Shown here: positions 10,800 to 37,165 of the stretch, one piece after another
Position numbering within the stretch: the first letter of the stretch is position 1
Layout of the letters: each line of letters opens with the position of its first letter
Assembly: GCF_964194025.1 (NCBI RefSeq)
Contig: NC_134476.1
Span: 19,220,001 to 19,284,000, forward strand
Reading direction: 5' to 3'
DNA length: 64,000 nt
From: Convolutriloba macropyga
Taxonomy: Eukaryota
The notes under the pieces: model-generated
Seen by the model: only the letters and a program-made list of their open reading frames with translations
Told to the model about the DNA's origin: nothing
Databases searched by the model: none
Program-made: the position numbers and the translations under genes

Positions 10800-12061
10800 T
10801 AACTTGGAATGGGAGAGGAAACTTTAATACGTCTCCGTTGCGATACGCACTCATTGCTAGTATATTGGATATCGAGACACAAGCAGTAATTCCGTGAAAC
10901 GGTTGACCCACACAGCGCATTAACGATTGCCATCAATATGGATATGAGCACAGGCTGTACGAAGTAGGTGGTGAAATTATTTGTGTTCCAATTCTGAGAT
11001 TTCTACGATCTTTTCCACCTTTACTAGAAGCAACGACTAAGGAATCATCAGCATAATGTAACATCATAACATCACAGTTAATAGCTGTACTTATATATGA
11101 AATTAGAGATGACAATAAAAATTGCGTAAAACTAACTAAGCGGGAATTCAGCCTTTCGTTTGCCGCAAATAACTCGTTGGCACAAAATTATCCATTCTAA
11201 ATGCTTTTGTTACCTTTTCACTTTTTCAGCACTGTTGTTCGCTTTTTTAAACACTCCTGAGATCCTGTGACCATTGAAACCGATGAAAAATTGGATATAA
11301 GACGAAAATTGTTACGAGTTTAACTCAAACTATGGTACCTTAAAAATAGAACCCTAAAAATTTTTCAAAAAAATCCTCATATTTTGTCTTTTTTTTCAAA
11401 CAACCTTTTCACTAGTAACAGTTCTTAGCAGAAAATAATTGTCATTCTGTTAAAATTGAAGCGACTCCAATTATTTACATTAAACAATACAGTAAACTGA
11501 TACAAAGATTTGTCATAAATTTATTCACAAAACAGTGAAAAGCCTTTTGTACGCCGCAACTGAATCTTTCAAGTCAAAATCTGCAACCACAAAATCATCC
11601 ATTCTATGTGCTATTGTTACCTTTTCAGTTCTTTAGCTCTGTTGTTTACAACTTTTTAGAGAGCCCTGAGATCATGTAACTATCGAAACCTCTGGCTTAC
11701 ATATTTGGTCTAATTGCCTTACCTCTATTTAGTTGGTAATTGAAACCTCAAACACTGATGATTCTGCACTGGCGTCGTTTCTGAGAGATAAGAATCGTCT
11801 ATGGGCATCATCTGTACTTGTATTGTGTGTTCAACAATTTTTTTATTGATGTAGCATCTTTGAAAAGATCTATGTAAGTTGGTAGATGTCGCTGTAAATC
11901 AACTTGGTATAAATGTTTGAGCATAAATTGGATTTATATTGAAAACTGTTTTAATTTCACCTAAAATGATGTTACTTTAAAAAGTAGAAAAATAACAATG
12001 TTCAAAAATTCCTTATAGTTTGTCGAATTTTAAAACATTCTTTTGTACTAGCGACAGTTCC
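10800..12061 (+). repeat. Copy of the gag-containing repeat, target of the large Gypsy insertion (continues at 21271-22050)
   Basis: 10800-12061 plus 21271-22000 is colinear with ~25020-27800. Confidence 0.8.
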
Positions 12062-12502
12062 TATGGTAGCCGCCCTTGCGCAATATTCTTTATCTTTGGC
12101 TAACTGAGCGTGGTTCTTGGTTAAACTGCAAAATTAGAAGTTAAAATGTTAAAGAGATTAAGGTGAAGAAAAGTTGGTTTAAATAAATTAAGATTTAATA
12201 GAGTGGTTGACTCTGATGGTAAGCTTGGTGTTCAATGAATAAATTTAATCCTCGCTTTGGTCAGTAGCCAATGTCGGTTCTATCATCGTGGTAAATTAAC
12301 CAAGTCAACAAAGATATGTCAGTTTCATTGATTGCACTACAAGCCCGAGCTTTGTCAAATCACAGGTCTATTTTCTTTTCTGACATCTATCAACTTTGTG
12401 TCAGCCATAAATCAGGTAATAAATTAAGATCTTAAAAAAATCTTCAACCTTGAATCCCAAGGTCTTTATTACACTTTTTTTTATATACGTGTGACACTCA
12501 CA
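12062..12502 (-). repeat. 3' LTR of the Gypsy element
   Basis: Diverged direct repeat of 20832-21270, preceded on the minus strand by the PPT AAAAGTGGGGCAA (~12503-12515). Confidence 0.93.
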
Positions 12503-12612
12503 TTGCCCCACTTTTAACAAGAATAGAGTGCACCACTCACTCAAAATCAAACAATATTTTCATTCACAGATCTTGTTATATGAACGTCTTACTATACAAA
12601 AAGTTTGTAGAT

Positions 12613-13560
12613 TCATATTGACAGTTTAATTATCAGTTTTAGTTTTTCAGCCTTAACCTTTTCTGCCTCGACAAGTCCAAATTTGTTGTATGCTCCCCGT
12701 GCCGCATCATTTGTCAGAATTTGATATGCCCAGTTGATGGTCTTGAAGAATTCTTCGTCTCCAACAGCATTAGTGTGGGTCAAAATGCTCGCTTTGTGAT
12801 AGTGTTTCTTAATCTGATCTTTTGATGCAGAACTTTTTACCATCAAAATCTCGTATAGCTTTGCAGGCCGGTTCATAAAGTTTTTGTTCCGAATCCGGGT
12901 TAAACATTTCTCCGTGGCGTTTGTTTTGGCCTTTTCGTTTCTGAGAGTACTCTTTTGATGATCAATGAGAGAATCTTTTTTTTCGGCATCCGTTGGCCAA
13001 ACACTGGTTGTAGTGTTCCAGCTGCTCAAGCTGTGACCTGAATTGGTCATTCATTTTATCCATATTTTCGATTGCTTCGCCCTTCTTAGCAGCTTTGACT
13101 TTCAAATCGGCCTACTCTTTCTTCAATAGCTCTATGGGTTGCTCCTGTTCAGCATTTGTGGCTGCTGCTGCCTTTAGATTATCTCGTAACGCCTCACACT
13201 CAGCGCTCCTTTTTACCAAAACTTCTTTTTTTGCATTTTTGTTCTTGTTGCAATAGTTATCCAGTTCCTGTCGAAGCTCGAGGAGGTCTTTTTGAAGTGA
13301 AGAATTAGTGCTCTTCAACTTTTCTAACTGTAGGCACTGGTTTTGTGGTTCCACTTCAGTTCTGCAGAGCACTCGACCGAATATTGGCTGGAGCCAGATG
13401 TTCTAGCGTAGATATTTGCCGATTCCGCGACAGACAAGATTTCACTCGATAGACTCCCGGGAAATCTCGGAAGAAATTTTCCACAATTCTGTCAAGTAGT
13501 ACGCATATTCACCAATCTGTGGAATCTCGTTACCCCTTTTATTGCATAAAAAACCCTTTT
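12613..13560 (-). pseudogene. Coiled-coil protein with a C-terminal DnaJ J-domain, carried inside the Gypsy element
   Basis: ORF 12613-13050 contains LYEILMVKSSASKDQIKKHYHKASILTHTN-AVGDEEFFKTINWAYQILTNDAARGAYNKFG, a canonical J-domain layout with HPD changed to HTN. The upstream coiled-coil ORF 13112-13372 joins it through a stop codon and a frameshift. Confidence 0.85.
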
Positions 13561-13630
13561 TGCTTCTAAAGTTTCTCGATATTTTCAATCTTCAAGTCAA
13601 GATTTTTAATTTTTTTCCTCTCTTTTTTTG

Positions 13631-13770
13631 GTCTCGAACTGGAGACGTTTCCGTTTTTTTAGTCTCGAACTCAAGACATTTTTTCCTTGGTCTCGAACTC
13701 AAGACAGTTTTTTTCGTCTCGAACTCGAGACGTTGTCCTTTCTTCATTTTTTTGGCCTTGAACTCAAGAC
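13631..13770. repeat. Five copies of the palindromic 16-mer GTCTCGA-AC-TCRAGAC separated by T-rich spacers
   Basis: Copies at 13631, 13662, 13690, 13716 (perfect inverted repeat) and 13755. Confidence 0.85.
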
Positions 13771-13899
13771 AACTCATTTTTCTTTTCTTTTCTTTTTTTC
13801 AACAACTGACACATTTAAGGACTTTTTTCTTCAACCATTTTCTTTTTTTCCTCAGTGTTCATTTATTAATTTGAGTAATTGATTATACATACGTGTTCC

Positions 13900-15624
13900 C
13901 GTTCTGGAGTGATTGTTGCCAAGACGCTCCATTAACAACTAATTTTAAATAGATGAAAAATTAAGGAAAATTGTTCACAAATTGAAAAATGATGTAGACT
14001 GTTAAGACTGACACAGCAATGTCCTTCGCTTTTAACCAAATGTATAAGTTTTCGGTTCTTAAATTCCGAAAAATTGTTGTTATTTCATCTGTTAGAAAAA
14101 ATTGTTGTTGGAACTGGTCGTTCCAATGAAAAAAGTTTTTATGACTGTGTTTTCCATTTGAATCTTGGAATGCTTCCCGACTGATAATTCTTTTACTATT
14201 ATGCGGAATTGTTCGAGCAATTTGACTCTGTTTTACCTCTGATGTGGAGAAAAGGCTGCGAAACAGGTTTTCATCACTTACATTTAAGTTACTATTCATC
14301 GACCACTGATATATCTCACGATTGATTTTCTTCAGCGTTTCTCCATATTGTTGAAAACTGCCGTCTTCTAATTTGACAACATTTGGGTACAGCGGGTTGC
14401 ATGCAGCGATTGTATAATTGTGATACAAATTTTTGTATTAGGGTCCAAATATCTAACAGAAGTAAAGTTCTGACCCTCTACTTACACAGGAACTTCTTCT
14501 GTGCCAAAAGGAGTTTTAGTTATTGTTGCTACCATCTTGGCACATTTATGAACATATAACACCGATCCTGCTCATTCGACGTGAGTTTTTGTCTCGAAGA
14601 GCGTAGCTGATGGACTAACAATGTTTTTTCATATTTCAATCATTGCTTGAATATTCAGTCGTTGAATCTCGCATTGGAGCGTTCTAATTTACATTATAAA
14701 TTTTCTCTCTCTTTGAGAAGTTCGAAAATAAAGGTGTCAACAACGCTTGAATTTTGCAGTGTCCTCCTTATTAAAGTGTTTGATCGTTTGGCATGTTTGC
14801 TCACCTTGATTTCCAATAAAATAGTTAACTAAGTCGTCTTCAAAGTTTGTGGTTTTGATTAAATTAGTTTTCGGAAACCTAGGGATCCTTAAAATTTAAT
14901 AAATTTCTTTGTAGCAGCTTCCCCCAAATATTTCCGATGTAAATTGTTGCATTTATTACCACAATTCTAGTAAGTTTTTCTCCTATAGGTGAAACTCTGC
15001 AGGCACTGCATACATATCGCTTTCGCGTCCATTTTTTTGAAATGAAGCTTTAACTAACCTTTTCGACATAAGTGGTTTCGCTGGCCTGTTTCCGTTACCA
15101 ACCTGTTGACTCTAAAGGTCCTATCTCCAAAACCTGTTCTGGCAAAACGTTTGTTCTGCCAAATGTTCCTACAAACTCCCTCATTTAAAGGGTATATTGA
15201 TTTTAGTCTTCAATTTTCTGTGAGAAAGACAACATCGTCATATACGTTGCTTTTTTAAAGTGCCGACACTGTATATGCCGCTTCATACATGCAAAGTTTT
15301 AGTTTTTATCAAAGGCTGAACCTCAACATACATCAAACTACCTTCTTCTTTTGTTTTCAATACTCGAATTTTTTTATCACAGTTTGTACTGCAATCTAGA
15401 GAATAGATCTTTGATGATACGATATTGTCAAAATCATTACCGTATAAGTTGATACAAGGAGAAGGAAAAACAAAAATTCCTAGTAATGCCAGATACAAGC
15501 ATAGTAATACTCCATCACACGACGCTCCGGCGAACTCGCCTTTCTTTTCGATTCCATTATTTCTTTCTGGATTTTCTTGAAACAAAAACATTATCAGTTT
15601 CCTGACTGCTGAAGTACTCTTCAT
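13900..15624 (-). pseudogene. env-like glycoprotein relic (chuvirus G / class III fusion protein-like)
   Basis: Hydrophobic signal (VLLCLYLALLGIFVF), Cys-rich ectodomain pieces (GVCRNIWQ, CKLER, AGSVLYVHKCAKMVATITKTPFGTEEVPV, YLDPNTKI-YHNYTIAACNPLYP) and a C-terminal TM (IAVSVLTVYIIFQFV). Lies between integrase and the 3' LTR. Family assignment is from recalled motif pattern, not a search. Confidence 0.72.
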
Positions 15625-16067
15625 CTTGCTCAGTATAGCAGATCATTAATTTCTCGGGCATCGATTTTAATCAGCTGCTCGATTTTGTAGCCATTTTTGA
15701 TGCCACGGGATCACTATTAATCCTTTCTTCAGTACTTTTTGTTTTACAACCAAATTTCTGTGGCTTCTTTTCTGGTTTTGGAATTTCTGTATCTGCTGCT
15801 TTTTTTCTAATGTACTCTGTAGGTTTTGAAGACGTTGCACCTCCTACCTCGGCAACATTTTTTGCCTTCTCTTGCCCTTTAGAGGTTTCTTGCTCTGATT
15901 CATTAACTTCACTCTCAGACGTGTCATCTGTAACATTTGGTGAATCGTTAGCATCCTCAGCTTCGGATTGATTTTCTGTGTTTAGATTGCATTCAATGTC
16001 TGTACATGATTCTATTTCAATTATATCATCATTGTCTGAGCTGTTCAAATCGGTTTTCTTCTGCTCC

Positions 16068-19000
16068 TTAACTGCTGTTTTTTCGTTTAGCCTCAGACTC
16101 AGGCTTCAATGGTTTTTCTGGTGTTTTATATTTTTTCAGCCGGTCATAATGTACCTTAGTTGCTTTCTTCGTCTTTTTATCTTTTACCTTGAAACTCAAA
16201 TCGTTTATAATTTTAACTATTATGTATGGTTCTCTATAGAAACAAGTAAATTTTCTTGTTTCTCCTTTTTTAACCGCTGGGTTGAAAACTAACATTTCTG
16301 CGCCAACTTCATAGCTCGGCCCATAGCTACTGCGATCATTATAGGCCCTCTGACGTTCTTGTTTGACATCCATATATTCTCGCATCAACTGATGCGTTTC
16401 ATGTATTTTCTGTTTCATTGTGAAAACATAGTCACTGGGTGTTGCTTATATTGCGGTCGGTGGTGTGCTATAGATGCAGTCTATAGGTAGCGACAGTAGA
16501 AAACCCAATACCACATACGCTGTGCTGTGTTTTGTTACACTATGGATTGAGAATCGATAGGCCATCATCGCTAATGGTAAAAATTTGGTCCACTCATGTT
16601 GATATTGGCCTATGTATTTGGAGAGACATTGTTCTATTGTCCAATTTGTTCTTTCAATCATCGCGTTCCCTTTTGGGTGGCAGGACGTTGTTGATGTCCT
16701 CTGAATTTCTAGTTCACTGCAAAGACTACGAAATAATTTCAATCTAAAGTTTGACCCTTTGTCACTGTGTAGGTTGACTGGACAGCCGAATCTGACTATC
16801 CAGTGTTAAACAAACGCTTTTGACACGGTTTTTGACCCCTGAATCGGTAAGGCTATGGCTTCGTACCACTTACTGAATTGATCACCGATAAGCAAAATGT
16901 ACTTTTTTCCTTGAGACTCGGGAAGTGCACGCACGGTATCAAGAGATACTTGCCAAAATGGATGACTAGGTTTCCATTTTGTGAGTGAATGCCGATACTT
17001 CTGATAAGTGCCTTTCCTTTTTAGGCACACGTAACATCTTTCTGTCCAGTTTCTTACGTCCCTTCTCATGCACGGCCAATGAAATTTTTAACAAGCCCTT
17101 TGGTATGTTTTCTCAATCTCAAGGTGACCTGCGCTAGGAGAGTCATGCAACAACTCAAGCACGTTGGACACTCTCTCCCATGGTACAAGCATTTGGTAAC
17201 AAAACTCAAAGTTTGGTTCTGTTTGGTGTTTACGATGAGACAAAGATTTGTATAATGAACCCAAAATTTCCATAAATTCTTTGATACTCCATTTTTCATT
17301 TGCCGTGGTTCCGGTCTTTTTGTTTAGTACCCAGGAGTATACTTCTTTTATTAGTTTGTCATTTTACCGCGAATCTCGCACTTTTACTCTCTCCATTTTG
17401 TCTAACGGCCAACCTCGACTACCATAATCGGTATTGTCTTGCTCTGCATCCATCGCAAAAGCGTTAACAAAAGCTGTTTGTTCATCGTCTTCTGTGTTTA
17501 TGCGCGACAGACAATCAGCTTGTGGGATTTTTTTGCCTGCTCTATGCTTGATGTCAAAGTTATTTTGCCCAAGTTTCTCTATCCATCTCGCAATCATACC
17601 GTCTGCTTCTTTAAAACTATAGATCCAGACAAGAGCCCGAAGTTCCGTTATAATTAGAAAGTGCTGACCAAGTAAATAGTTTTTAAAATGTTGAATAAAA
17701 TGAACGATTGCAAAAAATTCCCGCTTAGTGGCTGAATAATTTCGCTGGATTTTACTCAGAGTTTTCTAGCATATGCAATAGCTCTATCCTCCGTTACTTG
17801 CTTTTGGGTAAGAATTGCTCCAATTCCTGTCAATGAAGCATCCGTAAATAATGTATAAGGATCCCTATCTTTTGGATATCCTAAAACTGTCGCATCCAAA
17901 GGCTTATTTCTTTAGCTCGGATACCGCATTTTTGCACTCTGTACTCCGTTAAAATATATTGACTTATTCAGTAATTGCATTTTGATCCCTTAATCTTTAA
18001 TCCATTCTCCGCTAAACGTTGGAAAACCAGTTCTAACTGTTTCAGATGTTCGTCGAAAATTCTTCCGAAAACGATAACGCCATCTAGATACACTACAGCC
18101 ATTTCGTAGGATAGGCCAGCAAAAATTAACTCCATTAAGTTTTGAACAGCACCCGGAGCAGACCCTAGTCCCATAGGGAGTCTTTTTCACTTATACAGGC
18201 CTAGAGGCGTTATAAAAGCAGTTAAATTCTGACTCTCTTCCTCGATCGCCATCTGAAAAAATCCCGACCACAGATTTATATTCGAAAAGTACATGTTTCC
18301 CTCCAGTGAATCAAAAACCTCATTAATTCGTGGTAAAGCCTGTACGTTTTTTTATTTGGTTGTTCAGACCACGACAGAATGTACGTCTGAATGGCACAGC
18401 ATCCTTTTTTAATTTTATTTTATGATAAGTTCGGTCGCAAAATCCCATATCATTTCAATTTTGCGAAAAAATTACTTTATATTTTGTGCAAAGTGACCTC
18501 ATTTTTGTCATTTCCTCACAAGATAAGCTCATTGAACTAGCTTTCACATGCTTCTCAAATTCAAATTCATCTCTATGTTTTGTTTTAATGTCAGGGTCAT
18601 TTTGTTGTATTCTTTAAATTTTTTCATTGTTTTCCGCACTTGCGCATTTTTGTAAACTTTCTTTGGTTCTAGTGTAGGGCACAAAACTCGAACCCATACG
18701 ACATCATCAACTTTGTCATTCAGCAATCTCGCTATAAATAAATGTGATTTGTCTTCAAATTCTTTCATAGGTGCGAATATAATTTCTGTTTGCTGTGTTA
18801 GGTTAACTTCTTCATCGACAATTTTGCATTTAATGAAACCTTCGCAGCGACGAGATAATTCGTGATACACAGCAGCAATTAAAAGCAGATTCTTTTTACT
18901 TCGTTGCGATGGGGACAATTGTAATGTTTTCCCAATTGTCCCGCAAAAATATTCGTTTTTTGGGGTTTAAACTACAGTCAAAATTATATAAGAATTCGAT

Positions 19001-19284
19001 GCTCAATAACAAGGCGTTATATCATTTTTGGTCACTAGAAACTTAACCGTTAGCTCAGATGTGAATTTTTGAAGTTGGACCTGAATAGCTGTTGACACTT
19101 TCACAGGCATTTTTCCATTGTTGGCAGCTATTATATTTTTATTGCACACTCTGATCTGGCTCGGTTTTCCCAGTGGATGGTAGGGTGTGTCGCTTAAAAG
19201 ATTAACACCACTTCCACCATCAATTAAGGCCATTATCAGTTTGTCTTTTATCATTATTTTGGCAAACAAACGTGTTTCCACCAC
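16068..19284 (-). pseudogene. Gypsy pol (protease, RT, RNase H, integrase), fragmented
   Basis: PR LIDGGSGVNLL; RT MGLGSAPG...VYLDGVIVFG; RH ARWIEKLGQNNFDIKHRAGKKIPQADCLSR; IN HDSPSAGHL, C-x2-C, WQVSLD, GDQFSKW, HPKGNAMIERTN; GPY/F-like YREPYII. Confidence 0.93.
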
Positions 19285-19332
19285 GCAAAATTTTTACGTA
19301 GCGAGCTGAAAATGAAGCACCGCCATCTTCAG

Positions 19333-20400
19333 CTAGTTCTCATTTAAATAGGGGCAGTTTTGTTTCAAATGAATTGGACTCCCACATTCAAAACCATTCT
19401 TGCATTCCACAGATGCATGATTTTGCTGACCGCAACGGCAACATTTCTCTTTCTCAAAACACACCGCCTTCTGTGACTGCTCGACACGACCCTCGTGCGA
19501 CCGATCTCGGCTTCTGTTCTCGCCTCCTGGTGTTGGCAATCGCGCTCTACTGTCGTAATTGGTTCGTCTATTATCAGCGCTTCTGTTATAGCTATTATAA
19601 TTTCTATTTTTATCCGGTTTCTCTTGAACCACGCTCACTTCCACGCAGAATCTCTTTTGGCCTTGCTCCTTGCAATGGAAACTTTTGATTATCTTGCCTG
19701 TTAGATTGGTTAGTCTGCAGTGTTTGCACTAAATTGTTAATCGAGTTAACTAGCTGAGTGTTTTCACTTGACTGGATGGCAGAAACCCGCGACTGATTAT
19801 CTTCCTCCTCATTTCTCGTGACTGCTTCATTTTGTAGTGCTATTTCTGAAGCTTTGTCTAAAGTCATATCCGCGTCGCCCAAGTTCTTTCTCAGGTCGAG
19901 TCGCACCTGACTATTTTTTATGCCTTTGAGAAAGCTCTTAAAATGAGATATTTTCTTATCTCATGAGACGACTCAGGGTGCTCTTTCAAGTCTAAAGTTT
20001 GCAAATCAACGAGAAGATCTGTTAATTTTTCACCCAGCCGCTGGACTCTCCTAGCTTGCCTCCCTCGGAAAACAACAGGTTTCGCATTATAATGTTGTCT
20101 GAAAGCTTTTACGGTCTCATCATAGCTTTTCCTAGTGTCCTCCGAAAGTGCACGATAGAAATCAATAGCCGACTTTTGCATCCTTAACGCAAAATAATTC
20201 GGCCGTTCATCAAATTCGGTTTCGGCGCCGTTTACTTTTCCTTTTCTTTGCCACTTCTGAAGTTGTGAAAAGAGCTCAGAGTGTGTAACATAACTTTCGA
20301 AATCATTTGAACCCGTAAAAGCCTCCAGTAAAAGCGTTTTTGAGGAGTGCCACGCCGTCAGTGTTTTATTTAAAAGCTGCTGTTTTTCAAAGTATTTCAA
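19333..20400 (-). pseudogene. Gypsy gag (frameshifted) with two CCHC zinc knuckles
   Basis: ORF pieces 19918-20400, 19610-19906 and 19333-19644; EAFTGSNDFESYVTH gag motif; knuckles CCRCGQQNHASVEC and FECGSPIHLKQNC. Confidence 0.88.
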
Positions 20401-20831
20401 TAATCAAGTTAGAAACCCGAACTAGTTTTTGACACTCTAACTCAGCTGTTTTTGAATCTTATCGACCCTGTATTTTTTTTTGAAAAATTTCAAAAAACTT
20501 GAGGTTCAATGGTGTATTTTAAGTCAAATTATTTCGAATTCACATTCGCTTGATTTTGAACGCTATTTTATTACCGAAAAAACATGTACGAACCGATTTA
20601 CGATATTCGAAATTTTAGTGAGTACTCACTTAAAGTTTCGAAGATGGCAGTGTTCCTTGTCGAATTCCGACACTAGTTCAAAATTTATCTTTCGAATCGT
20701 GATATTAAGACGTCAGGCTCGTGTCGAAAATTGATTTTCAAACAAAAAAAATAGATTTCCATTGGAAATCAGTACAACGCTCAGTTTTATTGGGTGGTTG
20801 TTTTCTATCTACTTCTAATCTCTGTCGCCAC

Positions 20832-21270
20832 TATAGTAGCCACCCCTGCTCAATACTCTATGTCTTTGGCTAATTGAGCGTGGTACTTGGTTAAAATGCA
20901 AAATTAGAAATTAAGTTGTTAAATAGATTAAGGTGAAGAAAAGTTGGTTTATATAGATTAAGATTTATTAATGTGGCTAGCTCTGATGGTAAGTTTGGTG
21001 ATCAATGAATGAATTTATTCCTCGCTTTGGTTAATACCCAATATCGGTTCTATCATCGTGGTAAATTATCCAAGTCAACAAAGATATGTCAGTTTCGTTG
21101 GGTTCGCTCGAAGCCCGAGTTTTGTCTAATTACAGGTGTATTTTCTTTTCTGACACCTATCAACTTTGTGTCAGCAATCAATCAGGTAGAAAACCAAGTT
21201 TTCAACTAAATCTTTAACCTTGAAACCCAAGGTTTTTAGTACAATTTTTTTTACACGTGTGACACTCACA
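20832..21270 (-). repeat. 5' LTR of the Gypsy element
   Basis: Begins TGTGAGTGTCAC on the minus strand, aligns by eye along its length with 12062-12502, and is followed by the PBS (plus-strand ctctgtcgcca at ~20820-20830). Confidence 0.93.
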
Positions 21271-22049
21271 TTCCTCCCAGATAATTATTGTTTTTCTATT
21301 GAAATTGGAGCTAACTTTATTTGTTTTCATCAAAACTTATAGTAAATTTGTTCCAACAGAGATACATTTTCAAAAATTTAATGTAAAGAACAAAACAAAA
21401 AATTTCTACCTCTAGACTCTTTCTTTCCTTTATTTTGAACATATTTGTTTACATTCTATGTTAAAAAACGACTTATTGCTTCGAAAATTGTTTGACAAGG
21501 GTTCGCAAAAAATGCCCACTTAGCTGTGCGTGGCGAGAGAACAGATCTATCATCATTCCCCTTAAAATACTGAACTAGGGCTTCCAATTGAGAATACAGA
21601 ATTGTGAACGAATACTGATAGCCACTTAACTAGTTTAAAATCTGAGAAATGAAAAAAAAATTGGGAAAAAACTCCATTTGACATAAAAATTTCAATTTTT
21701 ACCGAAGGTTTTTTTGTCGTTTTTCTAAAAACTGAAGCAGTACAAAACTGCAATTTGTTTTGCTTTGGATCTAGCAAGCAATTAACACTCCAGATTTAAA
21801 ACTGTCTTGCAAACACTGAACAACACTATGTTTTGATTTTGCTACATCAAAAACAAGGTTGGTATTAAAGTAATACAACAAATTATATTCATCAGTGTGC
21901 GATAGACACAAAACATCGCTGGGAATTGAACTCCCTTGTGACATGACAAGTCCTGACCCTGTGCTACGGTGCGACAAAAGGGAGGAAAATTTTAAGTCAC
22001 TTCATTGGGTGGATATGATTATCCCACTTGCCGTTCTATGGGAAGGCTC

Positions 22050-25000
22050 AAAAGAGGATTAACTGGCAGAGAAAATTGTCAGACATTATTGATCAATTTG
22101 TACTGTATGATGCAAAAAGTGTAATGTATGTTATCAAATTGAAAAACCAATGATCCAACTTCTCTATTTGTTACTTGGAACAGAAGGTCGCAGAATTTTT
22201 GTTCCGAGAATCCTCGCAGAAACTGATCAGCTTACAAGTTGTGAAATTTGGATTCTAACGGAAACTGAATTTTTTAAGACCACTAACTAATACTTTTGAC
22301 CGACATGTCTTCATTGCAACGAAAACTTCCGTGATTAATCAATTGAACGTTCTTAATGTAAACTTAGAGAGCCAATCGTTAACTTGGAAGGGAAGAGGAA
22401 ACTTTAATACGTCTCTGTTACGATATGCACTCATGCTAGTATTTTGTATGTCGAGACCCAGAAGAATTTATTTCGTGAAACGGTTGACCCACACAGCGCA
22501 TTAAAGATTTCCATCAATATTGATCTGATCACAGTTTGTACGAAGTAGGCAATGAAATTATTTGTGTTCCAATTCAGAGACTTCTACGATCTTTTCCATC
22601 TTTACTAGAATCAACAATTCAAAAATCATCAGCATAATGTAACAACGTAACTTCATTGTCAAAGCTGTTTAAAGATAGCTTAGATATGAAATAAGAGATG
22701 ACACTAAATATTGCACTAAACTAATTAAGTGGGAAATCAGCAATTCGTTGGCCGCAAAGTACTCCCCTATGTCAGAATCTGCCGACACAAAATTATCCAT
22801 TCTAAACGCTATTGCCACCTTTTCACGCTTTCAGCTCTGTTGTTTGCTTTTTTTTAATACTCCTGAGATCCTGTGACCATTAAAACCTATGATAAATCGG
22901 ATATATGATGAAAATTGCTACGAATTTAAATCAAACTACGGTACCTTAGAAATAAAACACTTACAATTTTTCAAAAAAATTATTTTTTCCTAGCAGATAG
23001 TTATTGTTTTTATGTTGAAGTGGAAACAACTTTAATTATTTTTATTAAACAAAACAGTATATTGAATAAGAGATGATAATAGTATTTGTATTAATAGGAT
23101 TTGATTAAATTTTTTAACAAAGCAGTGAATTAGCGTTTTGTACGCCGCAACTGATTTTTTAACGTCAGTACTGTGTGGCGCAAAACTATGGAATCAAATT
23201 AAAAAACGGATGATCATACTTCTTTATTTGTTGATTGAAAAATAAAGGTGAAGAACTTTTTCTATCGTGAATCCTCACATATATTGATGAATTTACATGT
23301 CGTGAAAACTAGATTCTAATGGAAACTGAGTTTTTTAGACCAATAACTAATACTTTTGACCGACTTGTCTTCATTGCAACAAAGAGTTCCTTGATGAATC
23401 AATTGAACGTTCTTAATATAAATTTAGAGAGCCAATCGTTAATTTGGAATGGAAGAGGAAACTTTAATACGTCTTCGTTGCGATACGCACTGGTTGCTAA
23501 TATTTTGGATATTGAGACACAGAAGCATTTATTTCGTGAAACGGTTGACCCACACTGCGCATTAAACATTTCCATCAATTTTGATATGATCACAGTTTGT
23601 ACGAAGTAGGTGCTGAAATTATTTGTGTTCCAAATCAAGGTCTTCTACGATCTTTTCCATCTTTACTAGAATCAACAATTCAAAAATTATCAGCATAATG
23701 TAACAACGTAACTTCATTGTTAAAAGCTGTTTAAAGATAGCTTAGATATGAAATAAGAGATGACAATAAATATTGCACTAAACTAACTCAGTGGGAAATA
23801 AGCAACTCGTTGGCCGCAAAGTACTCCTCAATGGCAGAATCTGCAGACACAAAATTATCCATTCTAAATGCTATCATTCCCTGTTCACGCTTTCAGCTCT
23901 GTTGTTTGCTTTTTTAAAATAATTCTGAGATCCTGTGACCATTTAAACTTATGGCAAATTCGATATATGATGAAAATTGTTACGAATTTATATCAAACTA
24001 CGGTACCTTAAAATTAAAACATTTACAATTGTTCAAAAAATCCTCTTTTCCTAGCAGATAGTTATTGTTTTTATGTTGAAGTGGAAACGGCTTTAATTAT
24101 TTTTATTAAAAAATACAGTAAATTGAATAAGAGATGATAATAGTATTTGTAATAAATTTTTTAACAAAGCAGTGAATTAGCGTTTTGTACGCCGCAACTG
24201 ATTTTTTAACGTCAGTACTGTGTGGCGCAAAACAATGGAATCAAATTAAAAAACGGATGATCCTACTTCTTTTTTTGTCGATTGAAAAATAAAGGTGCAG
24301 AATTTTTTTAGCGTGAATCCTCACATATTTTGATCAATTTACATGTCGTGAAATTTAGATTCTAATGCAAACTGAATTTTTCTAGACCACTAACTAATAC
24401 TTTTGACCGAAATGTCTTCATTGCAACAAAATGTTCCGTGATGAATCAATTCAACGTTCTTAATGTAAACTTAGAGAGCCAATCGTTTATTTGGAATGGA
24501 AGAGGAAACTTTAATACGTCTCTGCTGCACACTAAAAAAAGTTCAGGTAAATTTACCTGAACCAAGTTCAGGTAACTAGAAGTTCAGGTGAAGTTCAGGT
24601 GTAAAAGCACCTGAAATACACCTGAACTGATTTTCAGGTAAATTTTCACCTGAACAAGTTCAGGTGTGGTTACCTGAAAATAACTTTCATTGCATTCGGC
24701 AGTGAAAAAACAAAAATTCAGCAGAAACTAAAACACAACACAAATACAAACTTTAGGAGTTGCCTGAAAAATTCAGGTAGAATTCAGGTAAAAACACCTG
24801 AAAAAGAATTTTTGCCTGAACTGTTCAGGCATTTTTTTCAGGTGTTTTTCAGGCATGTTCAGGTAAAAGTTCAGCCAGTGATGCCTGAATTTTTCAGGTG
24901 AATTTCAGGTAAATTTCAGGTGCTTTCAGGTGTTGTTCAGGTGAGAACAATTTGCCTGAACGATTCAGGTAAATTCAGGTGTTTTTTCAGGTAACTTTAC

Positions 25001-25700
25001 CTGAACTTTTTTTAGTGTGTGCGATACGGACTCATTGCTAGTATATTGGACATCGAGACACAGAAGCAGTTATTTCGTGAAACGGTTGACCAACACAGCG
25101 CATTAACAATTAACATCAATATGGATATGATCACCCACATCCAGCAAGAAAATACAATTTTCCTTAATACTGCACCAGTTTCATCCGTGAATGTTGTTCT
25201 AGGGAATTCATCATAGGTTTCTAATGCTGAAAAATTAAAGCTGCAGTATTTAAAAGCAACAACTCATAATTGTGTCCAGTTTTTGCACCGCTTGCGCAAA
25301 TTCTTTATAGTTTGATTAACACGACTCAGAAATTCGAGACTGCTATCGGTTTTTAGTCCTATGTATGCACATTTATCAGAACTTTTAAAAACTCTTGTAT
25401 CTATAAATGTTGTGATATGGGACCTGTTTCAGTTTTCGATTGTAAATACTTTTTTTTAAATCCAAATTTACCTAAGGTTGTACGAAGTAGGTAGCGAACT
25501 CATTTGTGTTCCATTTCAGAGATCTCTGTTCACTTTTCCACCTTTACTAGAAGCAACGACTAAGGAATCAACAGCATAATGTAACAGCGTAACATCACAG
25601 TTAAAAGCTGTACAAAGACGTCTTAGATATGAAATAAGAGATGACAATAAAAGTTGCGTTAAACTAACTAAGCGGGAATCAAACGTTTCGTTGGCCGAAA
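22050..25700 (+). repeat. Tandem ~1.05-kb units containing a decayed gag fragment of a second Gypsy family
   Basis: Units start near 22100, 23170 and 24215 (gtactgt...gcaaaa). Each encodes the gag-like motif LRYALIASILDIETQK.LFRETVDPHSAL.I.IN. Further copies at ~10800 and ~28250. Confidence 0.8.
24528..25019. mobile_element. CACTA/EnSpm(CMC)-like MITE, 492 bp, 2-bp TSD (tg)
   Basis: TIR cacactaaaaaaagttcaggtaaa / tttacctgaactttttttagtgtg with dozens of subterminal ttcaggt/acctgaa motifs. It interrupts the gag-like repeat whose uninterrupted form is seen at ~10830, 22410 and 23470. Confidence 0.88.
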
Positions 25701-26544
25701 ATAACTCATTTTCAATTTTTAGCTCCGTTTCTTTTGTAACTCTACTGGAGGTATCTGCAACTAATTTTTTAATGTCAAAATCTGCAACCGGAAAAATATC
25801 CGTTCAAAATGATATTTTTACCAATTCAATTTTTTAGCTTTCGTGTTTGCAGTTTTTTCAAACAGTCCTGAGATCTTGTGACTTTTTAAATCTCCGGCCT
25901 ACATATTTAGTCCAGTTGCCCCCTTCTTTTTATTTGGTAACAGAAACATCAAATACTAGTGAATCTGCAGTGTGATAGATAAATGTCGTCTATTAGCATC
26001 ATTAAAGCTTATAATGTGTGTTCAATAGGTTTTACTTGATGTAGCATATTTGAAAAGATCTATGTTAGTTGTCAGTTATGATCCAGTAGATGTCATTTTA
26101 AATCAATTAGATTTTACGGTTTGAGCACAAATTGCATTTATAGTGAAAACTGTTACAATTTCATCTATTAAGATTACCCTTTTAAAAAAAGGACCAACAC
26201 AGTTTTAAAAAAGTCCTCATAGTTTGTCGAATTTCTAAACATTCTTTTTAACTAATGACAGTTCTTCCCAGACAATTATTGTTTTCCTGTTGAAATGGGA
26301 GCTAAATTCATTTGTTTCCCTCAAACAGAATAGTAAAAATGATCCAGCAGAGCAACAACTCCAAAAATTTTTTGTGAAAATTGAAAGAAAAAAAATTTTC
26401 GGCCTATCTCTAGACTGTTTATTTTTTATTTTGATCACAATTGTTCACATTCTATGTTTAAAAACAACTCAACACTATGTTAAAGTATCTTCCGACTAAT
26501 AGCAGGCCTTAAAGTTGATAACCTAAACTGGCTAATTTCGAATT

Positions 26545-26690
26545 ACTCTCGAATGACAGGCGTGGCAAACAATTTAAAAGAGGCATTAGGCTAGGAAACT
26601 TTTTATTGACATAAATTTTCCGACGGCAAAGAAGTTGGAACCCACAATTTCTCAGATAAATGCCGGAGATTTTAACCAATGGACTAAAGA
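26545..26690 (-). mobile_element. tRNA-derived SINE copy (diverged)
   Basis: actctcgaatgacaggcg core; minus-strand tagtccattggttaa and gggttccaact boxes; lies in a block absent from the paralogous 21460-21480 segment. Confidence 0.55.
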
Positions 26691-27202
26691 TTTTATGTAG
26701 AGTTTATCATAGAATTTTTTCATAAGTTTGCATCAAATTTGACCTCCGAAGAGCACAATTCAATTCACTCAACCAAATCAGAAACTCAAGCGCGAAAACA
26801 TTACTCCAGAAAGGAAATTGAACAATGATTCAGTAATGCCGTAAGGCAATAATTTTGCACTAAAATGACCCAGACGTTTACATTTATTGCTTCGAACACC
26901 GTTTGACAATGGGTCACAGAAAATAAATGTCCTTTAAGCTATGCGCGGCGAGAGAACAGATCTGTCATCATTCCCCTTAAAATACTACATTGGGTCTTCC
27001 GATTTAGAGCACTGAATTAGAAAAAAACTAGTGGCCATTTAACTGGTCTAAAATATGAGAAATGAAGAAAAATTGGGGAAAAAACTCCATTTAGCAAAAA
27101 AGGTTTTATTTTCTGCCACAAGTTTTTTGTCATTTTTCTAGAAATTGAAGCAGTACAAAACTGCAATCTTTTATGTTTTGGATCTAGACAATTTTTGGTA
27201 CG

Positions 27203-27546
27203 CAGTGTTTTCAACGCCACCAGTTAATGTCATACCGTACCATGATACTATATACCATATTGTATAGTCAAACTCTTTTACATAAGAATAGTCTGCCGAC
27301 AAGTTCATATTACATTATTAATTACGTGATTTCCTTTACTTTGTACATCACGCCCTGCAAACCAGTCTTTCACCATTTATATATTTCACGCTGAATGAAA
27401 ACATAATGGCCATATAGTTTGTCTGCGAAATTCTTTCGCTTGCTTTTGCTCCGCTGAATGGGTTCAATATTTAGTTAATAACTTCCGAGATCGAAATACT
27501 TAAATTAAAAGTTTGTAGCTGAGTCGGAAGCTAGCTTATAACACTG
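27203..27546. mobile_element. Possible hAT-like non-autonomous insertion (cagtgtt...aacactg ends)
   Basis: Absent from the paralogous segment at ~21770-21790; 7-bp inverted termini; no clear TSD. Confidence 0.4.
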
Positions 27547-27899
27547 CCGCGCTAAATTAACACTTAATTTAGGTGTAAGTTTGCCTTACAAAAAACTGAA
27601 CAACACTAAACTTCAATTTTGCTAAAGCGAAGTCACTGTTGGTATCTAGGTAACACGACAAAGTGCATTCATCAGTGTGCCACAGACCCAAAACATTGTT
27701 GGAGATAGAACCCGATTGTGATATGACAACTCCTGACCCTGTACTACGGTGGGACAAAAGTGAGGCAAAACTTTAACTGAGTTCATTGGGTGGATGGGAT
27801 GATCTCACTTGTGGTTCTACTACAGGCAACCCCGGAAGCAGTTACAATTCCACCAGAACCACTTTAAAAGAAAATAATATAGGAATCATCTGCCCAATC

Positions 27900-30800
27900 T
27901 GAAGATGAAAGAGGAGCCATGAAGCCTCAAAAGAAGATTAACTGGCAGAACAAATTTCAAAAATTATTGATCAGGTTGTACTGTGTTGTTCAAAACTATG
28001 GAATCAAAGTAAAAAACGGATGATTTTACTTCTTTTTTGTCGATTGAAATTCAAAGGCGCAGAATTTTTATATCGAGAATCCTCACATAAATTAATTAGT
28101 AAACATGTCGTGAAATTTGGATTCCAACGGAAACTGAGTTTTTTTTACACCACTAAATAATTCTTTTGACCGATATATCTTCATTGCAACAAAAAAGTTC
28201 TGTGAGGTATCAATTAAACGTTCTTATTGTAAACTGAGCCAATCGTTAACTTGGAAGGGAAGAAGAAACATTGATACGTCTCCATTGCGATACGATTTCA
28301 TTGCTATTATATTGGATATCGAGACCCAAACGTAGTTTTTTCGTGAAGCGGTTGAGCCGCACAGCGCATTCACGATTGCAATCAGTCTGCATATGAGAAC
28401 CAGAAAGAAAGGACAATTTTCCTTTATAATGCAGAAGTTTAAACCGTAAATGATGCTAATGTCTTTCAATTACGATTTCTTATATAGTTTGAAATGATAT
28501 AACAAACGATAATGATGACATTGTTTTGCTTTTCATAGGGGCAACCACTAATGTGCGTTGAATTCCAAAACTGTTATTAGCTACGGCAAAAATGCTTGTT
28601 ATTTTTTCAATTTGTAGCTGCTGTATTCCCTTGGAAATTTTGAAACTTGGACGCTATGCAGTGTTATGAACAACGCAATGTAATAAACACCGCAACGTAA
28701 TGAACAACGCAATGTAAAAGCGGTCTCATGGGACAATACTTTCAATGACGACTAAACTATTAACCTGCTAATCAATTACGTAGAAGAAATGATGTTAATT
28801 TTTTCAAGCTCAGAGGACAACTATTCTGCTACAATGTCTGATTCCTCCATCGTGGAAGCGAATCCTCTCAATTTTAATGCTTTTATTGACAATTCAATTC
28901 AGATGGACACCACCCAATGCTTAGTAGAGGTCTCTTTCAAGCTCTGGGACTTTTCCGAAGCATAAAGACATCTCATTGGATAGTCAACCAAATAAATATT
29001 TGTCTTATCAAAAACAAGTGGCAAAAGAATTTCCTAATGTATTACATTGCTTTAGAAAATCCGAAGCACATCAAGTAGTAACAAAATTTGGGCAAAATTA
29101 TACGCCAAAAGACAAGAAAGGAAAACAGCTGCCGATGACTTAACATGAAAAAAAAACTAACTCAAGGGGGAAGCATTGAAGGAATTTCCAGTTGCTCAGA
29201 CAACAACTTCATCTCACCTATCGTTATACGGGTGAAAATTGATAAAGCTGTAAAATTAGCCCTTGAATCTATAGTTCTGAACAAGGCTATCCACAAAAAT
29301 AAATATCACAAGTTCCACATTGAAAAAGTTTAAACGAATTTCACAAAACGTGAATGACTCTGAAACAACAACCACTATGCATTTTACAACTTTGGAGTTG
29401 AAGCATGCTCATAGCCAAAAGAATCTACATCCTGACACGGCAAAACTTTAGTTTTATTCTTATCTCAGGTGACACTACCGAAAAGTACTACTTAAAATAT
29501 GGCTTTAATGGACTCAGCGACATGCTTGCTGATTTTCACAAATACATGGCTTACCTTCTAAATTATTACTGCTTTATAGATGATATTTTGAATGTAAACA
29601 GAGACACCATTTGAATTGAGTCAATGATAGTTTGGAGAAATTAGATTAAAAGAAACTTCGCATTAAAATTCGAAGTGTCATTTTGCAGAATCGAAAAAAT
29701 GAGTGGCTAGGTATGATCTAACTTAAACTGAGATTTTTCCTCTCAAAAGCTTGACAGCTTCGTCTTTTACATTTCTGCCCCAAATACGTTTAGGAAATTG
29801 CGCTCTTTAATAGTTTCGGTTCCTCATTTGATTGAATTAATCCCTAATCTGGCCCCATTGTGTCATTCATCGGAATCTTGCTAAAACAAAGTGTTAAGTT
29901 TGTTTGGAAGGAGCAACATGAACGCTTTTCTAACGCCACAAAAACAAAAACTGCCCAGTCAACTTCGAATCGTCATTTCAGCTTCTCACTCGCCAAGCGA
30001 AATAAGTGCGGTGCCTGCGGGTACAGTTTTGGAGCCGTGTCAGAAAGATTTTGATTTGAAAACTATCTATTTCGCTTCACGATTCTGGAAACCAGCCGAG
30101 GAACGATATACTACTAACAAGCTCTAGTTGTCATGTGTGGTTAGGTCAATATAATATCTTAAACATTGCCTTAATGTAAAAACACAGTCATTACAGAAGA
30201 TCGAGCCTTACTTCCAAATTTTTTTAAAAAAAACAGCCTTCTAATAAATCCTATAACCACCAATTAACTCATTTGGATAACTGTCTCTCACCCTATATAT
30301 TCGTCATAGAACATATTCCAGGCGCACAAATTCATATCAAAGAGCGAATCATATCTGTTTATGATGGAAAATTGACAGTCGAAATCCAAAATATGCAATT
30401 CAGTAGAGCTTATAATAGCCAAATTAATGCCAACGCAGTCTTACTGCCTATATTATACAGAAACACTTCCCAAAAATTGATCTGATGACACAAGTGAATC
30501 TAAATTTATTTCCCCGTCACCTGCCCCGCCAATTCCTGTTAAAATTAAATAGACTATAAGGTACAATTAAAAGTCAGTCCTTCGGTACTGCAAATTCAGA
30601 TCACGGGTACACTCGCAGCGCAAATACCAGTCGATAAAGGTTTAAATGTTTTTCTAAACATTAAATGGGCGTTAATGAATGCCCTTCCAAATAAGCCATC
30701 ATATCAGCGCTGGCAAAAGTTTACGGCCAACAAGTTCGATCTTTTGCTGCCACAATGAAATAACTTTTTTCTGCCACGATTGCTTTCCTAAGCTTTCCCA

Positions 30801-32200
30801 CAATTCTGATTGGTAATCAAAAAATCTTGATCAAAACAATCAAAAAAATGATCGGGACGTTATTCATAAAATATCTCCTCGCTACAATGATCAACTAGAA
30901 AGCATTCCTTGAAGAAGACTGGGACTGTGCGTTGACAAAGGATGACAACAGACTCACGCAGATCAGCGCTTACCTTCAGTAGTTTTGCCATGCCCGCAAT
31001 TTCAAAATTGGGTGTTGGCGCCTAGATGCAAACATTTGCGTTTCCAAATATAATTCTACGGAAGCTAGGGAATGATGTGCTTTTGTCAAATTGTGTGGTG
31101 GCCACACATGCATTGCGAAATTTTTGTCGGTTCTCTTGAATTTTCCCCGTGCACTGCAATTGGCCAGAATCTTAAGCTTGTATCAACCATATCAAAATTT
31201 AACCTTCTTTTAAATTGCTTAGTTCCGAACCAAAGATTTCTAATTGACGTTGGTGGGCCGTTCTTAAATGAGAAAAAAAAGAAACATAATTTTTAGCCAA
31301 TATGTTTGTTCCTGAAAATAAAAATCCGAAAATATTTTTTATCAGGCCTACGGACAAAATTTTGTTTTATTTAGGAAAATAGTTAAATTCACGGTGTTCC
31401 CAGATCAGTCCAATTAGATCAATCTAACTGTCTTTTGGGTAAAAAAAAAAGTTTCTGTAGTGTTAAAAAGGATTAAAATAAAGGCTCCAGCAAATGATTA
31501 CACACGAATTGGCGTTCTTAAAAGGCTCATTTAAACCGTAGATTTTAATGTATGAAAACATAAATGGAGAAAACAGGAAATTGTTGGTGAAGTCAAGTTT
31601 TTCGGCTATTGATAACAATTTCGGCATATGAAATTAACATACTACACCAGAAAGGCATAATACTCCGCTAAGCAATACCAGCACAGAACCAAAATTATCG
31701 CAGTTGTCATATGATAGTATAGTTAACTTATATTTAGACGAATACATTTCGAGTGCAAAAATTAATTCCGGAGCCAATCTGGGCAGATGCGATGGACTTC
31801 CAATAACTATTCATTCATAATGCAGATCTGGGAAGACCCATCCCAATCTCAAAGCAAGTCTGGACCTCACCAGTAAAATCAACGCAGGTGAAAAAAAATG
31901 GAGAGAAAACTTGTAGGTTTGTACACAGCATCAGATGAAAAAATAACAGCAGTGGGCTTATTTGCAACACTGTATATGATGGAGCGCGGCACGGTATTTG
32001 ATCGCGCATTTTAACCTCTTATGTGGCAAAATTCCGTGCTCGCGAGGAAAGAAACACTCCGCTGACATTTTACGCTGTCCAAAAAATTTTCACAATTACA
32101 AAACCGTTGATTGAAATATTTTCAGTCATCATAAGGCGTTACCACAAAATGTGATAACACCAAAAATGATGACAGGAAGCGCTGTTTCATCCAATATATC
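27900..32200 (+). mobile_element. Highly decayed Gypsy (second family): gag, RT, RNase H and integrase remnants
   Basis: CSDNNFISPIVIRVKIDKAVKLALES..LNKAIHKNKY (RT start), YCFIDDIL (YxDD), IYFASRFWKPAEERYTTNKL (RH), WWPHMHCEI...CTAIGQNLK...IDVGGPF (IN). Confidence 0.85.
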
Positions 32201-35200: not shown

Positions 35201-37165
35201 GTTTAAATGTTTTTCTAAACAAAAAATGAGCGTTAATGAATGCCCTTCCAAATAAGCCATCATATCACGCAGATCAGCGCTTACCTTCAGTAGTTTTGGC
35301 ATGACCGCAATTTCAAAATTGGGTGTTGGCGCCTAGATGCAAACATTTGCGTTTCCAAATATAATTCTACGGAAGCTAGGGAATGATGTGCTTTTGTCAA
35401 ATTGTGTGGTGGCCACACATGCATTGCGAAATTTTTGTCGGTTCTCTTGAATTTTCCCCGTGCACTGCAATTGGCCAGAATCTTAAGCTTGTATCAACCA
35501 TATCAAAATTTAACCTTCTTTTAAATTGCTTAGTTCCGAACCAAAGATTTCTAATTGACGTTGGTGGGCCGTTCTTAAATGAGAAAAAAAAGAAACATAA
35601 TTTTTAGCCAATATGTTTGTTCCTGAAAATAAAAATCCGCAAAATATTTTTTATCAGGCCTACGTACAAAATTTCGTTTTGTTTAGGAAAATAGTTAAAT
35701 TCACGGTGTTCCCAGATCAGTCCAAGTAGATCAATCTAACTGTCTTTTGGGTAAAAAAAATGAAAGTTTTTGTAGTGTTAAAAAGGATTAAAATAAAGGC
35801 TCCAGCAAATGATTACACACGAATTGGCGTTCTTAAAAGACTCATTTAAACCGTAGATTTTAATGTATGAAAACATATATGGAGAAAACAGGAAATTGTT
35901 GGTGAAGTCAAGTTTTTCGGCTATTGATAACAATTTCGGCATATGAAATTAACATACTACACCAGAAAGGCATAATACTCCGCTAAGCAATACCAGCACA
36001 GAACCAAAATTATCGCAGTTGTCATATGATAGTATAGTTAACTTATATTTAGACGAATACATTTCGAGTGCAAAAATTAATTCCGGAGCCAATCTGGGCA
36101 GATGCGATGGACTTCCAATAACTATTCATTCATAATGCAGATCTGGGAAGACCCATCCCAATCTCAAAGCAAGTCTGGACCTCACCAGTAAAATCAACGC
36201 AGGTGAAAAAAAATGGAGAGAAAACTTGTAGGTTTGTACACAGCATCAGATGAAAAAATAACAGCAGTGGGCTTATTTGCAACACTGTATATGATGGAGC
36301 GCGGCACGGTATTTGATCACGCATTTTAACCTCTTATGTGGCAAAATTCCGTGCTCGCGAGGAAAGAAACACTCCGCTGACATTTTACGCTGTCCAAAAA
36401 ATTTTCACAATTACAAAACCGTTGATTGAAATATTTTCAGTCATCATAAGGCGTTACCACAAAATGTGATAACACCAAAAATGATGACAGGAAGCGCTGT
36501 TTCATCTAATATATCCCCAGGCTGAGGTCCCAGACAGAAACCAGATATGTCCAGAACGAAATGAACGCACGAAGGGTGTCGTGCGTTCAAAATTGCACGG
36601 TCTGGAAATACGGATGAACGCACGATGGTCTGGACATGAACGCACGATGGTCTGGCGACCGCACGATGGTCTGGACATGAACGCACGAAAGTCTGGACAT
36701 GAACGCACAAAAAATTTTCGTGCGTTCATGTCTAGACTTTCGTGCGTTCACCAGACGGAAAAAATTACCTGCTGGTGTGCAGTGCAGATCCTTGAAGCTG
36801 AAGACAGAGAGGGTTCCAAAACTCCACAAATCCAGTTATTTAAAGTCTTTTTTTACGTGAGGTATATGAACATTTTTATACTATTAGGAGACATTGCCTT
36901 TTTTTGTTATCGTGAGCAAAATTGAAGGTGTCTATCTATCAGTATTAAGAATAAAATGAACCTCTAATAAGATAAGACTGTTTTTGACACTCATTCAAGA
37001 AAGCTGAAAACAACATAAACATATATCATTATCATCACATCATAAACATTGACATAATCAAACTAAAAGCCAATCGAAGCGAGAGAACAACTCCTTGAAC
37101 CGATAAAAAAGACCTTTTTTTCAAATTACTTATTCGAAATAATCGCAAACTTCAGTAAGAAAAAC
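30536..37165 (+). repeat. Three near-identical tandem copies (period ~2155 bp) of integrase relic plus hairpin array
   Basis: Unit starts ctgttaaaattaaatagac at 30536, 32942 and 35097. Near-identical ORFs recur at 31072/33228/35383 and 31815/33973/36130. Copy 1 has ~250 extra bp (30706-30955). Confidence 0.95.
32241..32531. repeat. Foldback array of ~21-bp units (gtctggacatgaacgcacga) in direct then inverted orientation; also at 34399-34690 and 36556-36757
   Basis: Tandem gtctggacatgaacgcacg units flip to cgtgcgttcatgtccagac across an aaaaaatttt centre. Confidence 0.9.

Follow-up and report, generated by a model that had tools for sequence, protein, structure and literature searches.

A J-domain gene retained after env in gB-type errantiviruses of Convolutriloba macropyga

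Introduction

Errantiviruses with a glycoprotein B (gB)-type envelope gene have been described across animals (Chary and Hayashi, PMC13524379). Here we analyze a window of 64,000 nucleotides from the genome of Convolutriloba macropyga (contig NC_134476.1, positions 19,220,001 to 19,284,000 of the forward strand). It contains a decayed long terminal repeat (LTR) retrotransposon that we assign to this group, with an additional gene after env that encodes a J-domain and is called the J gene below. All coordinates are those of the window. The element and its relatives resemble the described HSV/gB-type errantiviruses (HSV, herpes simplex virus) in their LTR-gag-pol-env order, with integrase last in pol, in a gB-like env with terminal hydrophobic segments, and in the presence of multiple near-identical copies (PMC13524379). 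They differ in having a fourth sense gene after env. The terms DnaJ, J-domain and Tudor are absent from the seven supplementary files of that article.

The bdelloid LTR retrotransposons Vesta and Juno carry GDSL and DEDDy accessory open reading frames (ORFs) (PMC5408684), and the planarian LTR retrotransposon Burro carries an accessory ORF other than env (PMC6431247). As in the present element, these extra ORFs were captured after pol or env and are kept family-wide. Counts for DnaJ and chaperone terms are zero in the text covered from both articles, and no chaperone or J-domain is named there. The J gene differs from these cases in that it occurs alongside env and encodes an adaptor of three domains.

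An intact J-domain, marked by the motif HPD, stimulates Hsp70; the client to which the chaperone is brought is set by the remainder of the protein. Virus-encoded type III J-proteins that recruit host Hsp70 include the polyomavirus T antigens and proteins of molluscum contagiosum virus and phage RB43 (057w) (PMC3486835). The J gene product resembles them in having an HPD J-domain, which in those proteins engages host Hsp70, on an otherwise unrelated protein. The carriers described there are DNA viruses and phages, whereas the carrier here is a reverse-transcribing element. The J-domain of T antigens is N-terminal, while that of the J gene is C-terminal, after a barrel and a coiled coil.

Another retrotransposon with a comparable env is Anakin of mosquitoes, which is said to belong to BEL/Pao and not to Ty3/gypsy. 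Its env, like that of the present element, is related to the fusion proteins of chuviruses and Monjiviricetes (PMC7642597, PMC12440569). No J gene is mentioned for Anakin in the search listing of PMC7642597, and DnaJ does not occur in the covered part of PMC12440569. The single DnaJ match in the covered text of PMC9004415 is a host gene name. Judged by titles and the starts of abstracts, full-text literature searches found no earlier description of a retroelement-encoded J-domain; repeat libraries (Repbase, Dfam, GyDB) could hold one. We conclude that the J gene is a real, selected accessory gene in an element of a known kind, namely a gB-type errantivirus plus a J gene.

Results

An initial annotation of the window, made from its letters, had described a disrupted ORF with a J-domain within a gag-pol-env-DnaJ retroelement. 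The peptide that it quoted was confirmed on the minus strand, which is the sense strand of the element. A 145-residue frame at 12613-13050 matches Pfam DnaJ (PF00226) with an E-value of 7e-12 and 45.7 bits, past the cut-off of 27.8. The domain spans about 12685-12858, with codons for HTN, in place of HPD, at 12769-12777. The gene can be aligned with open-frame copies of its family over 13528-12633 and is disrupted by four indels and one stop. The proposed architecture was also borne out, both by the order of Pfam domains and by other copies in the genome, which fall into family A (that of the window element) and family B.

A search of the genome (1.18 Gb) with the window J frame returned 1436 candidates. 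All 150 that were scored have E-values below 1e-36, many of them in open frames of about 300 residues. When 10 kb was fetched around 20 of these 150, favoring open frames, all 20 J genes were found inside an element. Sequence of pol and/or env lies upstream in 19/20 and a 3' LTR just downstream in 19/20; the remaining stretch is a mini-element composed of LTR, primer binding site, J gene and LTR. A sample chosen independently of the J gene was obtained by taking every seventh listed integrase match (22 copies). In 14 of the 22, the J gene directly follows env in sense orientation, each time with HPD. In two other copies env is expanded in tandem and a J match is listed 2-3 kb past the end of the fetched stretch, and three stop inside env, one of which resumes at the LTR past 2.5 kb of unrelated sequence. 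A further copy ends in a tandem env repeat, another is rearranged, with just the beginning of the J gene left, and the last adjoins a deletion derivative that lies inverted and bears a J gene. None of the 22 has a complete env that leads into the LTR with no J gene between them. The fourth gene is a family trait inherited with the element, not a one-off insertion.

Selection on the J gene was assessed from pairwise silent and non-silent distances (dN/dS) of natural copies, with break codons skipped and within-subfamily diversity subtracted. Subfamily A1 (21 copies) was compared with A2, the subfamily of the window element (7 copies). The net ratio for the whole J gene is 0.08 (95% bootstrap interval 0.05-0.12). 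Subfamilies were set by identity to one reference and silent distances near 1 are imprecise, but the intervals of the ratio lie far from 1. By part, it is 0.06 for the barrel, 0.09 for the coil and 0.03 for the J-domain, compared with 0.13 for env and 0.12 for integrase. Pairs of family-B subfamilies gave 0.16 (0.06-0.36), 0.09 and 0.12 for the J gene; the family-B integrase region was not part of the comparison. Compared within a subfamily, copies give whole-gene ratios of 0.39-0.66, which the admixture of post-insertion decay would predict. The share of open frames in the J gene and env was not used, since many copies had been chosen by their J frame. The J gene is under purifying selection in all three parts, with a constraint like that of env and integrase, and it is almost certainly a selected gene of the element.

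Of the family-A copies, 28 of 30 carry the HPD motif (20 having been selected by their J match), as do 19 of 23 family-B copies; HTN occurs in the window copy alone. The HTN of the window is decay, as had been suspected from the start. All eight full-length proteins compared have HPDxGG, with two to four basic residues ahead of the motif, in keeping with a basic helix II.

At silent sites, A1 and A2 differ by a net 0.75 in the J gene but by 0.20 in env and 0.13 in integrase, and their LTRs are only about 75% alike. From these values, it looks as if the J gene and the LTR are exchanged as a unit by recombination.

Family B is a sister family that keeps the layout at 28-30% protein identity. Its 23 listed integrase matches are 59-62% identical, and 11 of these, favoring long open pol frames, were fetched together with one chance stretch; pol, env and J gene follow in this order in all 12. 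The two families share 59% identity in gag, 81% in reverse transcriptase (RT), 66% in the integrase core and 32% in env. Within the J protein, identity is 43% in the barrel, 26% in the coil and 35% in the J-domain. No LTR similarity was detected between the families, despite which the frame, position and HPD of the J gene are kept in both. LTR pairs are 89-100% identical in six family-A copies and 99.8% identical in two family-B copies, indicating that both families have been recently active. A third family is represented by a fragment that matches P0185 at 60-64%.

Proteins of the same design also occur outside this genome. While an initial homolog search returned only family-B relatives (118 of 1459 candidates), a profile search of 1.84 billion representatives found further barrel-coil-J proteins among the best 150 matches, which were examined. 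Six full-length database homologs are 22-43% identical among themselves and to families A and B. HPDxGG and the barrel are kept in all, and the length of the coil varies. P0122, P0134, P0196 and P0125 have no close copy in the C. macropyga genome (E 1e-50 to 1e-70), where distant kin are possible. The four tested database homologs stem from short ENA or Logan contigs, and P0128 and P0134 have no match in metagenome contigs of the Joint Genome Institute (JGI). The database homologs probably belong to other hosts and presumably lie in LTR elements there.

The J-domains were placed in a tree of 50 sequences (12 element-type, 13 host and 25 database rows; 81 columns), in which most forks are open. 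A 100/100 branch separates all 12 element-type J-domains from the host and database rows; the comparison with host DnaJ proteins called for by the initial annotation thus yields a single element clade, apart from the sampled host domains. Those of families A and B match HPDKGG-type database J-domains at 53-56%, compared with 33-38% for the sampled host ones. The tree took in 13 of the 18 top host loci and intron-split host genes may be missing from it, so no donor of the J-domain is named.

The architecture of the J protein was modeled with AlphaFold for an open-frame family-B protein (7-sequence alignment, mean predicted local distance difference test score (pLDDT) 80.5). The model has a barrel of four to five strands (residues 1-50), one long helix (57-197) and a C-terminal J-domain. 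The corresponding segments in the window are the broken N-terminal beta-barrel of Tudor/PWWP/KOW/SH3-like type (13360-13528), the broken coiled coil (12859-13359), and the J-domain with its tail (12633-12858), all on the minus strand. The initial annotation had recognized the coiled coil and the J-domain but missed the barrel. PF00226 matches the J-domain of open-frame copies with an E-value of 1.7e-16, and the modeled domain superimposes on that of Sis1 with Z 9.3 and a root-mean-square deviation (rmsd) of 2.8 over 75 residues. Pfam and PDB matches of the J protein are confined to the J-domain and generic coiled coils; no glycine/phenylalanine (G/F) region, zinc finger or DnaJ C-terminal domain was found in either. 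Thus, only part of the original DnaJ/Hsp40 label stands: the J-domain is there, but on an unrelated scaffold, and by these domain searches the protein is classified as type III (class C) and not as a full DnaJ/Hsp40. No hydrophobic (signal or membrane) segment was found in it, the maximum 19-residue hydropathy being 0.5. At E 0.001 or better, Foldseek gave no match in the PDB and a single one in BFVD, a phage J-domain. The ESM Atlas provided no usable match for the barrel; for the whole protein it yielded just unnamed clusters (0.79-0.80).

The modeled barrel has structural matches at Z 7.4-8.4, the best rmsd being 1.2 over 47 residues. The highest scores are to the Tudor domains of PHF20 (8.4), TDRD3 (8.1) and SMN (8.0) and to a PWWP domain (8.4). 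KOW and other SH3-like barrels follow at 7.4-7.8, within about one Z unit, so the class of the barrel is not settled by these scores. Ten barrel sequences have no match to Tudor or PWWP families in Pfam (E up to 1), nor does a barrel profile in the PDB (E up to 10). The best-conserved positions in these ten sequences are three arginines, two valines, one glycine and one proline, and are thus mostly basic or aliphatic. As a candidate source of the barrel, the SH3-like C-terminal domain of the element's own integrase finds little backing: when 39 pol windows were compared with the barrel profile, the three best cover this domain, but at a probability below 1%, and one of the ten barrel sequences matches PF22938 at E 0.15.

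The sequence ahead of the barrel contains candidate splice signals. The motif YAG/G occupies one and the same register there in 38 of the 43 copies listed for families A and B; in family A, a pyrimidine tract that varies in length comes before it. In the window, the tract and putative acceptor lie at 13529-13560 on the minus strand and are decayed. The leaders of both families contain a donor-like A/GTGAGT. Together, these signals suggest that the J gene may be expressed by splicing. In family B, an ATG lies two bases past the putative acceptor, right at the barrel and 22 bases past the env stop. A donor scan with approximate splice weights returned several in-phase candidates, including some in env and gag, and did not pinpoint the family-A start; no in-phase donor above threshold lies just past the family-A env signal region. 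In contigs of four runs from one study over a family-B stretch, the 15 joints listed, out of these and 268 more, include no leader-to-J joint with GT..AG ends.

The window element as a whole is decayed and occupies 12062-21270 on the minus strand, in the order gag, pol, env, J gene, LTR. It is flanked by the same four bases on its 5' side (21271-21274) and 3' side (12058-12061), and 4-bp duplications flank other family copies also. The 5' LTR (20832-21270) ends as in family copies and is identical to the 3' LTR (12062-12502) at 387 of 448 aligned bases; this identity of 86% indicates that the insertion is old. A primer binding site beginning TGGCGAC (20818-20830), common to families A and B, is presumably of tRNA-Ser type, and a polypurine tract lies at 12503-12515. 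The broken gag (19336-20358) was mapped by tblastn with the family gag at 74-81% identity; open-frame copies have a zinc knuckle (zf-CCHC). The broken pol (15670-19408), with deletions in its RT region, has the order protease-RT-RNase H-integrase, as Pfam shows for the pieces in the window and, in families A and B alike, for copies with open frames. Gag and pol overlap in different frames in family A and form a single frame of about 1680 residues in family B. The classification as a Ty3/gypsy (Metaviridae) LTR retrotransposon is based on the LTR pair, target duplication, primer binding site, polypurine tract and gag-pol order.

The broken env (13816-15557, minus strand) is assigned to a chuvirus/gB-type (class III) fusion glycoprotein by PF24664, hydropathy and mapping. 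In family A, env matches PF24664 at E 1.8e-10, and in family B at 2.3e-14, each past the curated cut-off, and we take PF24664 proteins to be class III/gB-like. Hydropathy peaks in open-frame copies, which fit an ectodomain between a signal peptide and a transmembrane segment, are 2.07 (N-terminal) and 1.56 (C-terminal) in family A and 1.25 and 2.18 in family B, in a simple window scan whose weaker peaks are marginal. Between env and the J gene is a spacer of short A-rich tandem repeats (13600-13800), present only in family A. Taken together, these features identify the element as a gB-type errantivirus: an env-carrying Ty3/gypsy element, present here as a decayed copy, in a lineage with a fourth, long-retained gene.

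Several other observations were made on J-bearing sequences, related elements and the rest of the window. A mini-element of LTR, primer binding site, J gene and LTR (L035:280-2307) has a 4-bp target duplication and 96% identical LTRs; it sits within a third-family J gene and moved without gag, pol and env. GT..AG ends are absent at the deletion junctions of the loci examined, which leaves an origin of the mini-element as a spliced retrocopy unsupported. Loci L132, L133, L135, L043 and L017 are tandem arrays of units with the J gene or parts of it at 1.4-2.7 kb spacing. In other gB-env Ty3/gypsy families (L098-L107), env is followed by additional ORFs and by no J gene; in L099, L101 and L104 these ORFs match RING fingers weakly in Pfam, and in L098 and L105 there is a 611-residue frame lacking Pfam hits. 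At L093-L097, L103 and L108-L110, a gB-type glycoprotein gene of about 898 residues has no long pol frame within 4 kb upstream and is followed by a conserved 284-residue frame with no Pfam hit; these loci are possibly a different kind of endogenous viral element. In the window, copies of a dispersed repeat of about 1 kb flank the LTR element on both sides (10800-11700 and 22100-28400). A 2.16-kb unit is repeated three times in tandem at 30900-37200 (95-99% identity, each with an internal array of 22-bp repeats). Nested long inverted repeats at 37400-40700, with arms of up to 311 bp at 94%, suggest a foldback element or one resembling miniature inverted-repeat transposable elements (MITEs).

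Discussion

By analogy with other HPD J-domains, the J protein very probably recruits Hsp70. We propose that it recruits Hsp70 to a target derived from the element itself, and give this reading as a whole a probability of roughly 0.5. The protein would be made from a spliced subgenomic RNA and would act in the cytosol or nucleus as a soluble three-part adaptor, composed of the barrel, a coiled-coil spacer of variable length and the J-domain. The basic barrel would bind the element's own RNA, Gag or an RNA/DNA-protein complex, and Hsc70 would thereby be brought to this complex for particle assembly, RT maturation or uncoating. Hsp70 and Hsp40 are reported to act in the assembly and uncoating of viral capsids (PMC7356129). 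Of the three roles offered in the initial annotation (assembly, uncoating and glycoprotein folding), folding appears the least likely because the J protein has no hydrophobic segment.

While this proposal fits the constraint on all three parts of the gene, a number of results weigh against it. In family A, no in-frame ATG precedes the barrel, and the one leader donor found would not bring one in, so neither accounts for the start of the gene. The model of the full J protein rests on seven sequences and has a predicted template modeling score (pTM) of 0.30, and the barrel folded alone reaches a mean pLDDT of 59. Tudor and PWWP domains, readers of host chromatin and methylated proteins, are among the best barrel matches and fit a host target equally. 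HPD is altered or lost in 4 of 23 family-B copies, including two open-frame copies with HLD. None of 18 stretches around other gB-env genes (from 68 scored candidates) contains a J gene, showing that gB-env elements in general need none.

Different targets can be envisaged for the same domains. The main rival, which we regard as possible but doubtful, is an adaptor for anti-silencing or host remodeling: the barrel would bind a host target such as Piwi/Argonaute, chromatin at the element or methylated proteins, and the J-domain would bring in Hsp70 to dismantle or misdirect that complex. The Tudor and PWWP matches at the top of the barrel list favor this, as do host precedents in which the J-protein DNJ-12 links Argonaute to HSP70 (PMC11194074) and the J-protein SILENZIO silences transposons (PMC8616336). 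Neighboring gB-env families have RING-like ORFs in the same position, which suggests a slot for host-interaction genes, and the J-gene/LTR module has diverged far more at silent sites between A1 and A2 than env and integrase, as if exchanged as a unit. Tudor is not singled out among the matches, however, with KOW and SH3-like barrels about one Z unit away. The barrel has no Tudor sequence similarity in Pfam or the PDB, its conserved residues are basic rather than aromatic, and its ratio of 0.06 denotes strong purifying selection where an arms race would predict fast change. It is unlikely, in particular, that enveloped Ty3/gypsy elements of an old lineage, found in several animal hosts, use a Tudor-like-barrel/coil/J adaptor to aim Hsp70 at the silencing machinery. 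If true, this would be a chaperone-based counter-defense encoded by a retroelement.

It is improbable that the J protein has no specific element client and acts as a sink for Hsp70, titrating or redirecting it and altering the heat-shock state. Phage RB43 provides a precedent with a J-protein that stabilizes sigma32 (PMC3486835), and the J-domain is the most constrained part of the gene (0.03). Yet all full-length homologs, at 22-43% overall identity, have kept the barrel, whose constraint equals that of the other parts; this speaks for a specific client. A luminal co-chaperone for Env folding, with the J gene spliced to the env signal sequence, is more improbable still. It would accord with the position of the J gene directly after env, with the need of family A for an upstream exon to provide a start, and with the in-phase donor-like sites in env and gag. 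It conflicts with the lack of a hydrophobic segment in the J gene itself, with the ATG that family B has at its barrel, 22 bases after the env stop, and with the lack of an in-phase donor above threshold right after the family-A env signal region. Finally, the gene could have been a processed host DnaJ pseudogene or a functionless passenger, for which the sole point is that the window copy is broken and without HPD. This explanation is refuted by the net dN/dS of 0.08, by the presence of this gene also in a family whose gag is 59% and env 32% identical, by the 100/100 branch that separates element J-domains from 13 host J-domains, and by a barrel-coil scaffold unlike any sampled host J-protein.

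Reverse-transcribing viruses and elements borrow host chaperones. The lineage described here seems to bring along an Hsp70-targeting module of its own. In the literature covered, such a device is reported from polyomaviruses, a poxvirus and phages. The J gene is as constrained as integrase and env, in families with LTR pairs up to 99.8-100% identical and thus recent activity. If the partner of the barrel were identified, it would show which step of the errantivirus life cycle or of host defense is limited by Hsp70. Elements with a selected J-domain gene suggest that the host chaperone is steered to the element's own ends.
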